33,016 bases of DNA from Bdellovibrionales bacterium. GTDB taxonomy: Bacteria > Bdellovibrionota > Bdellovibrionia > Bdellovibrionales > DASUEL01. Every line of letters starts with the position of its first letter. The stretch's first letter is position 1. Under the pieces are notes generated by a model. The model did no database searches, was not told the origin of the DNA, and saw only the letters and a list, made by a program, of their open reading frames with translations. Made by a program: the position numbers and the translations under genes. Location: contig JBFWOZ010000033.1 in the NCBI GenBank assembly GCA_050250255.1, positions 1-33,016 of the forward strand, written 5' to 3'. Positions 11,733 through 17,914 of this stretch are shown one piece after another.

Positions 11733-12764
11733 TTATTTAATTGTTGTAGGATCAAACGTGATAGCAACAGAAGAGCCTTGAACCGGAATCGCCGTGCCGT
11801 GAAAAATCACGCTGTTCGAACTTGCCTCATAAGTCCAACCGTTCGCGGCATCTTGTGGAACCGCGCTGCCGTTAACAGAAACAGCGATTGATGTAACCAC
11901 TGGCGTACGGTTAAGAAAAAACTGTGTAGAAAGTTCTGCGATTTTGTTCTGAATTTGGTTGAGAACAGTGGCAAAGTTATCGCAAATACTTCCCTTCACG
12001 CCACCTGTTGCATCGACGAGAGCGGCATAACGAGTCGCGATACTTGCAGCTGCGTGGCTCGCATTTTTACAAGCCTGATCCCAAACCGCGATTCCCGAAA
12101 CGGAATATTTTCGAGTCGCACCTGAAGATTGAGTCAGAGTATCTAAATAAGTCACGTAGCTTTGAACAGTGTGAAGAGCGGCGCTCGCATAATTTTTATT
12201 AAGACTGAAAGAACCGTTGTGAGAAAAATCATCTTCGTCGCTCACAATAATCACTGAGAGATAGGCATCTGATCTTCTAAAGTCACTATTGAGTGTGCTA
12301 CTAAGAGCTGTCTTGAAACTTTGAAAAGCTCTTTCATCTCCAATGCCATTAATACCTTGAGTGATATTTGTCGCAAAAGTCGGGAAGAGATTGGGAGTAT
12401 TAGGTTTAATAACAAATACGCCCGTGTGACTTGTGGCATCTGTTCCATCTTTTAAGCGTGCTAAATTGGCGTTTCCAAAAAGAGCTGCCCACGAATCTGT
12501 TGTTGTCACGCCCATGCGGTAGTCATAGCCCTTTGCAGAAAAGCTTTGGATAAAAGAATTAAAGTTATTAGCAAGATTGGTCTGCGCAGGTTGCATAGAA
12601 CCTGAGTTATCAATCACCCAAAGAATATCCATTTTATTATTCAAAACCGTCCCCTGATTAAAGACGTTGGTATCTGAAAGTAATGAAAAACTAGGAGTGT
12701 CGTTCGCACACCCCATGAGACTTGTGCTAAGAGCTGTAAGAGAGAGCACTTTATTGAGTTTCAT
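11733..12764 (-). CDS. Lipoprotein with a VWA/MIDAS-like domain
   Basis: Lipobox LMG-C, DILWVIDNSGSM (DxSxS MIDAS), VIIVSDEDD, beta-rich C-terminal domain. Confidence 0.85.
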   Translation of the reverse strand: MKLNKVLSLTALSTSLMGCANDTPSFSLLSDTNVFNQGTVLNNKMDILWVIDNSGSMQPAQTNLANNFNSFIQSFSAKGYDYRMGVTTTDSWAALFGNANLARLKDGTDATSHTGVFVIKPNTPNLFPTFATNITQGINGIGDERAFQSFKTALSSTLNSDFRRSDAYLSVIIVSDEDDFSHNGSFSLNKNYASAALHTVQSYVTYLDTLTQSSGATRKYSVSGIAVWDQACKNASHAAASIATRYAALVDATGGVKGSICDNFATVLNQIQNKIAELSTQFFLNRTPVVTSIAVSVNGSAVPQDAANGWTYEASSNSVIFHGTAIPVQGSSVAITFDPTTIK

Positions 12765-14613: not shown

Positions 14614-14641
14614 CTATCGGATTTATGAGTCGCTTGCTTGA
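14614..14641 (-). promoter_or_regulatory. Putative sigma28 (FliA)-type promoter of the PilZ gene
   Basis: Minus strand TCAAG-N15-TCCGATAG; the -35 lies inside the first codons of dusB. Confidence 0.5.
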
Positions 14642-15641
14642 TACTTTAAAACTGAATCCCTTCGTCTTAGCACCAATGGCTGGGATCACGGACTGCGCCT
14701 TTCGTTCTTTCATGAAGGAAATGGGCACGTCTATCGTCGTGTCGGAACTCGTCTCGGCGAATGGACTAGAGTATGATAGCCCAAAGACCAAACAGTTAAT
14801 GCGCTTTGAAGAAATACAAAGACCAATCGGAATACAACTTTTTGGTGAAACTCCAGAGATTATTGCACGTGGAGCACAAGCGGTTGAACAGATGGGTGCA
14901 GATTTTGTAGATCTCAACTTTGGCTGTCCTGTTCCGAAGGTTGTCAAAAAAGGGGCAGGGGCTGCAACATTAAGAGATCTCTCGCGTCTTCAGGAAATTC
15001 TTTCTTGCGTGAAAAAAGCGATCAACATTCCACTCACTATAAAAATCAGAACCGGTTGGGACGAGGATTCTCGCAATGCCCATGAGGTTGTTCACGTCGC
15101 TTACAACGAAGGCATCGAGTGGGTTGCGATTCATGGCCGCACGCGCGCGCAACAGTATGAAGGCAAAGCCGACTGGGAATACATTGCTGAAGTAAAAGCA
15201 AAAAGCAAAATTCCAATTCTTGGAAATGGTGACATCGCGAATGCCGAAATGGCCGTTAGACGTTTAGAAGAAACGGGCTGCGATGGCGTGTTGATTGGCC
15301 GCGGTTGCTTAAAAAATCCATGGATTTTTACCGAAGCACTCACAAAATGGCGCAAGGAAGACGCGGCTCCGATTCAAAAAGACTTTCACACTTTATTTTT
15401 GCGACTGCGTGGACACTTAGAAAAACATGTCGATGAGCGCGTGCTTCTCATACAAATGAAAAAATTCTCTTCCTGGTTCAGCGCAGGTTACCCAGGTGCT
15501 TCCCAATTCCGCCGAGACCTTTTCACTTCTAAAAGCCTCGAAGAAGTCTACGGCACCGTCGACGGTTACTTCGCTAAGCTTTCTACGCTTCCTCAGCAAG
15601 ACACCAGTAGCGAAGCCTTCCTCATGGGCGGCCACGGCTAA
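14625..15641 (+). CDS. dusB: tRNA-dihydrouridine synthase
   Basis: LAPMAGITD, DLNFGCPVPKV, KIRTGWD, IHGRTR, GNGDI, IGRG..NPW. Confidence 0.95.
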   Translation: MSRLLDTLKLNPFVLAPMAGITDCAFRSFMKEMGTSIVVSELVSANGLEYDSPKTKQLMRFEEIQRPIGIQLFGETPEIIARGAQAVEQMGADFVDLNFGCPVPKVVKKGAGAATLRDLSRLQEILSCVKKAINIPLTIKIRTGWDEDSRNAHEVVHVAYNEGIEWVAIHGRTRAQQYEGKADWEYIAEVKAKSKIPILGNGDIANAEMAVRRLEETGCDGVLIGRGCLKNPWIFTEALTKWRKEDAAPIQKDFHTLFLRLRGHLEKHVDERVLLIQMKKFSSWFSAGYPGASQFRRDLFTSKSLEEVYGTVDGYFAKLSTLPQQDTSSEAFLMGGHG

Positions 15642-15665: not shown

Positions 15666-15789
15666 GGGAGCGGATGGGATTTAGATTGTGTCTCTCCCGA
15701 CACGGCCATCCTTGGCCTCGCCGACCGGCAAGCGCGCCATCCATGGGTCGGAGGTCGTGAGAGACACAATCTAAATCCCATCCGCTCCC
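15666..15789 (+). repeat. Structured palindromic element copy A (perfect 31-bp arms around a 62-nt core)
   Basis: Arm 15666-15696 GGGAGCGGATGGGATTTAGATTGTGTCTCTC is the exact reverse complement of 15759-15789; core is 15697-15758. Confidence 0.93.
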
Positions 15790-15903
15790 ACAAACTCCGA
15801 GAACAATAAAAAAATTATCCTTATTGTCCGCTTGCCTCCTGAATTTTCAGATGCTGAATTTCCGAAGACACGCTGGGAGTTTTTTAAATATGTGTAACGT
15901 TTT

Positions 15904-16029
15904 TGTAATGGCGGAGATTTGTTTTGGGTCTTGGACGACCTCCGACCCATGGACGGCTGGCTTGTCTGTCGGCGAGGCCCATGGATGGGCCGTGTCGGCC
16001 AAGACCCAAAACAAATCTCCGCCATTACA
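15904..16029 (-). repeat. Structured palindromic element copy B (perfect 31-bp arms around a 64-nt core), inverted relative to copy A
   Basis: Arm 15904-15934 TGTAATGGCGGAGATTTGTTTTGGGTCTTGG is the exact reverse complement of 15999-16029. The reverse complement of core 15935-15998 matches core A at 56 of 64 aligned positions. Confidence 0.93.
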
Positions 16030-16049: not shown

Positions 16050-16931
16050 TTAAATGTAGTCGTCGGAGTATTCGGCTTCGTCTTCGGGGGTGAAGCTTTC
16101 GTCAGGGGTTTCGTCTTCGATTTCAGGTTGGGTGAGTTCGCCGGAGTCGTCGACGGGTGCTGCTGGCATGTTTTGGACGAGTTCGCCGTCCCACGGGAAT
16201 GATCCCATGTTTAACTTTGCTAGGGTGTAGGATTCAAAGTCGATGCGGCCTAATAGAAACATTCTCTCGACTGTCTGGCGGATGCGTTGGCGGGCGTAAG
16301 GCGTGAGTACGCGTTTGCGAAAGCTCGCGCTGTTCTTTTTTGGGTTAGGAAGAAGAAGTGCCAGGAATGAAGACTCAAGCACACTGAGTTGATCCGGAGT
16401 TTTTTTGAAATAAAATTGCGAAGCGGCCTTTATGCCATAAAGATTTTCGCCGAACTCCACAAGATTAAGATAGCGCTCGATAATTTCGTTTTTTGAAAGT
16501 GTGCTCTCAATTTTTATGGTGATAAGAGCTTCCTTGAGTTTTCTAATGATCGTTTTCTCTGATGAGAGAAACATATTCTTTGCAAGCTGCTGAGTGATTG
16601 TGGAGCCGCCGCGTTTAAAAGTTTTTTTCAATAAGTTTTCTTTGAAGCTTTCTTTCATTTCTTCGAAATCAAAGCCATTATGAGAGTAAAAGTTTCCGTC
16701 TTCGGAAATAATAATGGCATTTCTCACATTGGAGGAAATGGATTTAAGGGACGTGTAGTTTTTGGACTGAGGACACAAATTGACTTTGTGCATTTTTGTT
16801 GTGAGACAGCCCTTGATCATTTCGCTTGTGGGTATAGAGGCGTAAATATGAAATGCGAGAATTACAAAAATAAAAAAAGCGGCGGTCCACCAGCCAAGTA
16901 TCACTGCTCCAATGGGGAAAAACTTTTTCAT
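16050..16931 (-). CDS. mtgA: Monofunctional peptidoglycan transglycosylase with an acidic C-terminal tail
   Basis: GT51 motifs SEDGNFYSHNG, RGGSTITQQLAKN, RKLKE, YLNLVEFG, LPNP. Start set at MKKFF (16931), giving an ATGA overlap with the upstream gene. Confidence 0.92.
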   Translation of the reverse strand: MKKFFPIGAVILGWWTAAFFIFVILAFHIYASIPTSEMIKGCLTTKMHKVNLCPQSKNYTSLKSISSNVRNAIIISEDGNFYSHNGFDFEEMKESFKENLLKKTFKRGGSTITQQLAKNMFLSSEKTIIRKLKEALITIKIESTLSKNEIIERYLNLVEFGENLYGIKAASQFYFKKTPDQLSVLESSFLALLLPNPKKNSASFRKRVLTPYARQRIRQTVERMFLLGRIDFESYTLAKLNMGSFPWDGELVQNMPAAPVDDSGELTQPEIEDETPDESFTPEDEAEYSDDYI

Positions 16932-17914
16932 GGGTTTAAAAGTCCCTCTTGCTTCATCCACTGTACGGAAGCTTTTATGGATTCTTTTGCGGACTGACTT
17001 TTAAAAGAAAGTTCTTGTGCGGCCTTGGTAGAATCAAACCAATGATAAAGTGTCGACATATAGGCGGATTCAGAATTGACCGGGCCTTTTTTCCCGCGCT
17101 TCTCTAAAAAATCTCCAAGTTGTCCTAAGCTTCGCACAATGGTGTTTGGAAGGAAAAAGCGTGGAGGTTTTACTCCAGCTTCATGTGCGATCATCTGAAA
17201 TAGCTGCTGAATGGTCACATTCTCTCCTGATAAGATGTAGCGTTCTCCAGTTTTTCCACGAGTACACGCTTGAATGCACGCATCAACAATCGCTTCCACA
17301 TTCACCACACTCACTCCTCCTCGAGTATAGAATGGAAATCGTCCTCTGGCGACTTTGAGCTGTGTGTTACGACTTCCTTTCAATGCATCTCCGGCACCAT
17401 AAATGGTCGAGGGATTGAGAATGATAGAATCTAGACCCTTACTCTGAACGGCTTGTACAACGAGTTGTTCTGCAGCCCTTTTAGTTTCAGGATAGCCGAA
17501 GTTGTAAGGTGCTAAATTATATGTGGAGTTTTCGTTTAACACTTCAGGAGTGGGCGAAGCCCCCACGGTCACAACGGAGCTCATGTGAATAAAGCGGCGG
17601 ACACCTGCTTTTAAGGCTCCGTGAACAGCGTTTTCAGTTCCAAGAACGTTCACTTGTTCCATCTGTTGGCGTTCCGAGGATGTATAACCGATATAACCCG
17701 CCAAATGAAAAACCACTTCGCATCCAAGAGAAGCCTTTTCTAGATCTTGCTTCTCGACGATGTCACCACAAATGACATGTACTTGTTTTTGAAGTTCAGC
17801 AGAGAGTTTACTGGGATTACGACATAAAACCTGTACGTGATGGCCCTCTTTTACTAGACGTTCTGCTAGCCATTCTCCTAAAAATCCTGTGGCACCGGTT
17901 ACAAGTACTTTCAT
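16928..17914 (-). CDS. NAD-dependent epimerase/dehydratase (extended SDR, HpnA/dihydroflavonol-reductase-like)
   Basis: VLVTGATGFLG, VFHLAG, YPETK (YxxxK), GERYILSG. Confidence 0.92.
   Translation of the reverse strand: MKVLVTGATGFLGEWLAERLVKEGHHVQVLCRNPSKLSAELQKQVHVICGDIVEKQDLEKASLGCEVVFHLAGYIGYTSSERQQMEQVNVLGTENAVHGALKAGVRRFIHMSSVVTVGASPTPEVLNENSTYNLAPYNFGYPETKRAAEQLVVQAVQSKGLDSIILNPSTIYGAGDALKGSRNTQLKVARGRFPFYTRGGVSVVNVEAIVDACIQACTRGKTGERYILSGENVTIQQLFQMIAHEAGVKPPRFFLPNTIVRSLGQLGDFLEKRGKKGPVNSESAYMSTLYHWFDSTKAAQELSFKSQSAKESIKASVQWMKQEGLLNP

Follow-up and report, generated by a model that had tools for sequence, protein, structure and literature searches.

A divergent pair of TwoAYGGAY-like folded repeats with locus-specific stems between dusB and mtgA in a Bdellovibrionales genome

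The dusB-mtgA intergenic pair

The window, i.e. the whole analyzed stretch of 33,016 nucleotides from a Bdellovibrionales bacterium, harbors dusB (14625..15641, + strand), encoding a tRNA dihydrouridine synthase (TIGR00737, 329 bits, above cut-off), and mtgA (16050..16961, - strand), encoding a monofunctional peptidoglycan transglycosylase (TIGR02070, 184.7 bits, above cut-off). The region between them holds two folded elements, copy A (15666..15789), starting 24 nt after the dusB stop codon, and copy B (15904..16029), located 20 nt from the mtgA stop codon; a spacer of 114 nt (15790..15903) separates them. Each element is a three-way junction closed by arms that pair perfectly over 31 bp (A, 15666-15696/15759-15789; B, 15904-15934/15999-16029). 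The arms of A and B are identical at 17 of 31 positions, the cores align at 56 of 64, and the two indels of the core alignment are compensatory, adding a C-G pair. Arm positions, identities, indels and distances to the stop codons had been described in the first-pass annotation and are confirmed here, as is the lack of a U-tract: the intrinsic-terminator pattern (U-tract after a short GC stem) is absent from both copies. The length of "exactly 31 bp" holds for the perfect pairs only, whereas a single A-G mismatch sets this limit and both stems run on beyond it with four further pairs, giving a basal stem of 36 bp down to the junction. Copy A additionally possesses a second, outer stem (15636-15659/15797-15820), an inverted repeat (83% over 24 nt) also seen on folding; its left arm takes in the last dusB codon and the stop codon, and its right arm lies in the spacer. 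Folding yields z values of about -12 for both copies, and by chance only about 1e-9 arm pairs of this kind would be expected in the source genome. A sigma-70 consensus was not found near the pair, including the 114-nt spacer. Elsewhere in the window, an open reading frame (11733-12764, - strand) shows a below-cut-off match to Bdellovibrio MIDAS-family adhesins.

Contigs frequently break at stems of this kind, and perfect inverted arms could in principle be created by assembly, a refuting case that had been raised at the outset. Two further samples of the study, however, yielded contigs that cover B (15905-16028) and most of A with its flank (15687-15907) with zero differing letters, and the same architecture occurs in complete genomes. 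The arms of both copies are therefore regarded as real, and an artefact as their source can practically be dismissed; these pieces vouch for the arms and not for the direction of the copy B core, which none of the listed ones spans. Among 29 relatives (L346-L374), no empty dusB-mtgA site is present, and none carries the element after dusB. In most of them the gene next to the dusB end codes for a GTPase and has a typA-like start; in a single relative mtgA lies near dusB, with another open reading frame in between. Judged by this gene order, the dusB-mtgA junction of the source genome is a lineage-specific arrangement.

A dispersed family with a conserved core

The two elements belong to a multi-copy family. 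A covariance model (R1) built from seven copies detects eight long-stem copies in the source genome; together with one on contig C29 this gives at least nine, and a further candidate resides on contig C80. Their stems measure 33-39 bp, which does not agree with a fixed arm of 31 bp, and their arms match only their own locus (mean pairwise arm identity 41%). R1 matches are found in 49 of 151 genomes of the order, with copy counts that are lower bounds since at most 27 candidates were scored per genome: one genome (G056) gave 23 matches in this screen and 73 when scanned alone. In a 151-genome sample of the phylum, 10 genomes match, one of them outside the order. A BLAST search with the core over 61 genomes returned only the source genome and one weak match, the method being too insensitive. 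An exact-pattern scan of a collection of genome contigs yielded 39 matches, none element-like in the flanks printed and read as chance hits in GC-rich genomes, and one pattern scan of viral contigs gave no match.

The analyses below concern the 154 copies at fetched loci; 63 further matches of the order-wide screen lie outside this set. The median ungapped stem is near 40 bp and the maximum 96 bp, and 47 of the 154 stems count as fully perfect, two of these being register failures of length 0. When 69 copies are fitted to the model, 95.9% of the cells pair, compared to 37-47% in slid controls, in an alignment that was itself fitted to the structure. All five pairs of the inner stem around one of the loops (CCGAC/GTCGG in copy A), predicted from the two copies at the start, change on both sides within these 69 copies. 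The basal stem is common to the copies and poorly conserved in sequence. Close pairs are divergent in 9 of 10 cases, at loci that were partly hand-picked, and G056 also has tandem and convergent pairs. A conserved core within locus-specific, near-perfect stems just downstream of stop codons, as proposed from A and B, is thus a property of the family.

Both copies have their best Rfam match in RF01731 (TwoAYGGAY), A on the - strand (38.7 bits, E 3.9e-5) and B on the + strand (32.7 bits). In this comparison with Rfam, suggested at the outset, both scores remain below the cut-off of 43. No tested copy reaches this gathering cut-off; the best score among five relatives is 39 bits, and locus L067 gives 37 bits. 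The alignment covers both loops plus the AG and CG junction bases. On the strand opposite to each host mRNA, both cores display two loops of the type ANGGAY. In copy A (AYGGAY strand -) these are ATGGAT in the 5' hairpin loop (15739..15744), enclosed by the covarying CCGAC/GTCGG stem (15721-15725 with 15747-15751), and AAGGAT in the 3' hairpin loop (15708..15713), which aligns to the Rfam loop. In copy B (AYGGAY strand +) they are ATGGAC (5' loop, 15949..15954) and ATGGAT (3' loop, 15981..15986), the latter again within the Rfam alignment. Both copies hence carry two AYGGAY-type loops, the first of which is looser family-wide: GGA is present in the 3' loop of 149 of 153 copies, a count biased by the model used to find them, and in the 5' loop of 102 of 153, which otherwise mostly reads ACGA (30) or GTGA (19). 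A and B face outward when read on the AYGGAY strand and form a divergent doublet.

Wobble pairs give a similar indication. Among 147 distinct copies, whose orthologues are not independent, G-U exceeds A-C on the AYGGAY strand by 64 to 16 in the modelled 22 bp and by 41 to 16 beyond. This excess singles out a strand and does not discriminate RNA from DNA, because G-T wobble and strand-biased deamination give the same sign. The host-mRNA strand had been taken as the working strand in the first-pass annotation; this was probably wrong, since the conservation of the GGA loops, the match to Rfam and the excess of G-U each favor the strand opposite to the host mRNA. By crude calling of open reading frames, 115 of 154 copies are situated at most 120 nt from a stop codon; in 87 of these the AYGGAY strand is antisense to the gene concerned, and in the other 28 it is sense; in 49 of the 154 copies neither neighboring gene reads the AYGGAY strand. 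The orientation seen at A and B is therefore a tendency of about 3:1, a bias that stands, and not a fixed rule as supposed.

Origin and turnover of the stems

A and B are paralogues, and the 14 differences between their arms, each mirrored on the partner arm, are present as described but provide no substitution history, for which orthologous pairs in relatives are required. In 20 such pairs, aligned with gaps and not independent of one another, 806 arm positions are unchanged, 97 changed in a mirrored manner, 25 on one side and one otherwise. An earlier ungapped count over 23 pairs (219 mirrored to 29) was dropped in favor of these figures, which leave out three of those pairs. Arms diverge by about 0.11, four-fold degenerate sites by 0.31 and cores mostly by less than 0.1. 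Since the arms evolve at about one third of the four-fold rate, purely neutral arm conversion is rejected and constraint is needed in addition. Orthologous copies persist between species whose neutral sites have diverged by 30-40%, and their arms change more slowly than such sites, a pattern more in keeping with a retained function than with active transposition; judging from these rates, the elements are old residents under constraint.

The stems can reach into genes. At L167, a perfect stem of 83 bp takes in the final 26 nt of the gene for an ABC permease; at L170 and L173, the stems mirror 19 nt of greA, and 17 nt of fur are mirrored at L092. An additional outer stem of at least 9 bp accompanies 30 of 152 copies, compared to 1.2% for mismatched flanks. 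Stems that hold inverted copies of the last codons of the adjacent gene point to templated copying. In bacteria, template switching between the arms of inverted repeats is described to perfect them in the available part of PMC5941160, to which the accessible text of PMC8604942 adds inversion of the spacer. The homogenization of arms with mirrored changes is the same here as in this quasi-palindrome correction, which, as far as the available text of PMC5941160 goes, is known for short repeats, whereas the arms described here, which surround a conserved core and run into coding DNA, comprise 30-96 bp. It is supposed that a template switch writes the mirror arm and that selection subsequently keeps it. 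The first-pass proposal of arms preserved by selection together with template-switch-like copying thereby finds support in the mirrored changes between orthologues, the slow arms and the mirrored coding ends. In two orthologous comparisons (L138/L150 and L121/L125), one core is reversed relative to the other, in fragmented assemblies that could be mis-assembled; none is flipped among the complete or few-contig genomes of genus g31 that were compared.

Gain, loss and replacement are observed at one orthologous site, downstream of the rplL terminator in the Bdellovibrio-like genus g31. The element is present there in 13 of 30 genomes, in several as a divergent doublet; 5 of 30 carry a different conserved core, in L415 within the same outer stem ends, and the rest carry neither. 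By eye, comparisons of this site revealed neither a direct target duplication nor a clean empty site, the sequences being too diverged. At a second g31 site (30 loci), the downstream genes are rearranged and a clean empty site is likewise absent.

Several further modules were encountered alongside the family. In 2 of the 9 long-stem copies of the source genome, a GGA loop is swapped for another hairpin module. A hairpin module of 35 nt replaces a GGA loop in long-stem as well as in compact copies, at different hairpins (source genome G000, sites C11:76334, C29:21376, C1:8553, C8:86089, C34:29301 and 30663, and C14); for the module in L065, Rfam gave no match at E 0.05. A second repeat family of the source genome (contigs C4, C20, C53, C60 and others; seven motif matches), with a core containing GGACAGTCCTCG, likewise has its core conserved and flanked by perfect arms of 21-36 bp that are specific to each locus. 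This family occurs also at L372, L415 and L425-L428 and fills the rplL site in the five g31 genomes; at L372 it directly follows the dusB stop codon, which its arm mirrors. A third family (contigs C1, C9, C13, C15, C19, C28 and C41; 12 motif matches) has a GAGGCGCGAC-type core and locus-specific arms of 10-22 bp, which suggests that mirroring of flanks may be general in the source genome.

Candidate partners, known systems and interpretation

Genes coding for HNH nucleases are the most conspicuous neighbors. In G056, a copy lies within 650 nt at 24 of 33 HNH loci, and 42 of 73 copies adjoin an HNH gene (about 2 expected under a crude null); at L096, outward-pointing copies stand on both sides of an HNH gene of 348 aa. 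At 14 of the 21 HNH loci examined in the source genome, a compact variant built on the same junction follows the gene in sense, at a distance of 4-121 nt. These loci span two HNH subgroups with about 25% identity, and all 15 compact copies adjoin an HNH gene. By contrast, none of the nine long-stem copies of the source genome, the A/B pair included, adjoins an HNH or Y1 gene, and no long-stem copy was found at HNH loci elsewhere (0/28 in other genomes, 0/30 in family f2), so that a role of HNH as general mobilizer fails in these 58 loci. Compact-variant loci in other genomes have an HNH match at only 2 of 24; G142 carries at least 16 copies with one HNH match, and copies also occur in G025, G034 and G002, three genomes devoid of HNH matches at E 1e-20. 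As far as gene neighborhoods tell, the link is real but lineage-limited, and it may reflect mobilization or insertion sites shared by HNH cassettes and the repeat.

The HNH family shows a weak match to DUF222, below cut-off, in 2 of 16 members, and resembles in this respect the REP13E12/DUF222-HNH repeat genes, which are likewise multi-copy. It differs in that the AYGGAY element is attached to the HNH 3' end in two genomes, with most members elsewhere lacking it. We know of no established function of REP13E12. A speculative extension, considered rather doubtful, assigns the mobilization of TwoAYGGAY-type repeats to DUF222-like HNH nucleases: an element-HNH-element unit as in L096 would be autonomous, divergent doublets such as A and B would be what is left of it after loss of the gene, and nicking of the folded junction would prime fold-back synthesis that writes the stems from target DNA and lets cores flip or swap. 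Among the HNH loci L196-L224 and L227-L255, many genes show by eye a common upstream arrangement, in which a promoter-like box rich in A and T is combined with a TTGAC motif some 200-250 nt ahead of the start; this shared layout possibly marks a left cassette boundary. The contig ends of C34 and C82 in G000 carry identical sequence beside the compact element with different HNH genes and arrangement, possibly due to strain variants or rearrangement.

It is considered, with a probability of roughly 0.55, that A and B represent, as a divergent pair, a dispersed folded repeat of TwoAYGGAY-like type, the GGA-looped junction of which lies opposite to the nearest host mRNA and is likely recognized in trans as a folded single strand, and the stem of which is likely written and refreshed by template-switch copying of flanking DNA. 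A putative protein would bind the junction on the AYGGAY strand; the trans recognition of the core suggested in the first-pass annotation is plausible. A polymerase switching templates would copy flanking DNA into the mirror arm of the locus-specific stem, selection would afterwards maintain pairing, and copies would spread as non-autonomous elements. The least certain step is the spreading enzyme, for which the multi-copy HNH (DUF222-like) family is the best candidate.

Next in rank, and possible at distinctly less than even odds, is transcription of the AYGGAY strand into an RNA that serves mainly as a decoy for CsrA, with the long stem just positioning the GGA loops and kept by compensatory selection; this does not exclude a folded-strand repeat. 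The pairing of features sought in a Csr/Rsm sponge is found, i.e. the GGA-bearing hairpin loops, nearly invariant at the 3' loop, and a csrA gene in the source genome, placed beside a gene that resembles fliW by sequence, and the G-U bias is compatible with RNA. CsrA binding is proposed for TwoAYGGAY in the accessible parts of PMC4333381 and bioRxiv 10.64898/2026.09.22.753630, and Bdellovibrio bacteriovorus CsrA represses a GGA-bearing reporter according to the available text of PMC13443453. A decoy does not easily account for the one third of 5' loops devoid of GGA, the copies with an AYGGAY strand read by neither neighboring gene, the missing sigma-70 consensus near A and B or the replaced GGA loops, and selection alone leaves the perfect mirror of 26 coding bases at L167 unexplained. 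Ranked third and unlikely is the original proposal of a 3'-UTR structure acting on the host-mRNA strand, e.g. as an RNase III site, a 3' stabilizer or a factor-dependent terminator. The proximity to stop codons, the prevalent orientation (87/115) and the tight stem lengths in the source genome would fit, and YPAL repeats, according to the available text of PMC2229807, are expressed together with the genes upstream of them and may influence the stability of transcripts. Against it stand the 28 of 115 copies in the other orientation, two of them in tandem-gene contexts of the source genome, the wobble pairs favoring the opposite strand, and a loop motif that matches the known one on that strand only; moreover, a long stem affects mRNA in either direction, and any such effect may be a by-product.

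That a Y1 (RAYT) transposase, one of the partners first suspected, moves the copies as REP/REPIN- or MITE-type elements is very improbable. The source genome has eight Y1_Tnp matches, and a conserved palindrome, found by itself in the source genome, encloses many of the genus g27 copies in its loop. Yet a clear copy is found at only 1 of 38 Y1 loci (1/30 in four other genomes, 0/8 in the source genome, bar one weak match at E 0.008), G142 with its at least 16 copies has no Y1 match, and the ends are not conserved. On these flanking counts, RAYT was rejected as mobilizer. Rfam matches to miRNA families were likewise discarded, as they reflect the long stem only.

The shared features place the family close to TwoAYGGAY (RF01731, clan CL00106): two AYGGAY-type loops on a junction, a long and poorly conserved basal stem, AG and CG junction bases, and multi-copy, intergenic occurrence in variable copy number with divergent doublets about 100-400 nt apart. 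The present elements differ in scoring 26-39 bits, in a first loop that sits on a hairpin of 2-4 bp within a CTCC/GGCGAG stem, in the frequent presence of a third hairpin, and in stems that comprise up to 96 perfect bp and can mirror coding ends. Because they appear to work in a TwoAYGGAY-like manner and fail the Rfam score test, they are filed as a variant apart from TwoAYGGAY and not as a member. To our knowledge, neither a tested function nor a mobility mechanism has been reported for TwoAYGGAY since 2010. For Pseudomonas TwoAYGGAY, divergent doublets make up 68.4%, the gap is 249 bp in the median and no mobilizer is reported, as stated in the accessible text of bioRxiv 10.64898/2026.09.22.753630, which leaves the link between mobility and regulation open; its main text, as far as available, makes no mention of Bdellovibrio, HNH or RAYT, and its supplements may list Bdellovibrionota matches. 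The external stem of the family is described as poorly conserved in the available part of PMC4333381, and TwoAYGGAY is listed as probably RNA and probably not cis-regulatory in that of PMC2864571. In view of such descriptions, a conserved core with a variable stem, also in divergent doublets, is an already known layout, and the full novelty first ascribed to it does not hold. In the literature searched, which covers few subscription papers, neither the Bdellovibrio-type branch nor stems that mirror coding ends nor a link to HNH genes was found to be described.

Other repeats show partial resemblance, judged from the accessible parts of the respective papers. REP/REPIN sequences with RAYT (PMC3184786) are also intergenic, follow stop codons, form inverted doublets and have a candidate enzyme gene flanked by copies; here, the variable part is the stem and not the spacer, Y1 genes are unflanked, and the flanked gene, if any, codes for an HNH nuclease. 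YPAL/RU-2 of Yersinia (PMC2229807) shares an internal conserved structure, the lack of TA ends and a location at or near dyad symmetry, but produces direct target duplications of 3-26 bp, whereas the flanking copy here is inverted and no direct duplication was seen. Compared with MITEs, conserved terminal inverted repeats are absent, the arms matching their own locus only.

The Bdellovibrio-type branch adds three testable handles, namely stems holding an inverted copy of host coding DNA, an orthologous site at which gain, doubling, loss and exchange of cores can be followed, and a candidate enzyme that can be named. Since complete genomes of genus g31 carry the copies after rplL, tests are possible in cultured predators that have CsrA. 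Genome-wide, G000 harbors in addition three palindrome families with conserved arms of the REP or MITE type, with 44, 29 and 17 motif matches (two per element).
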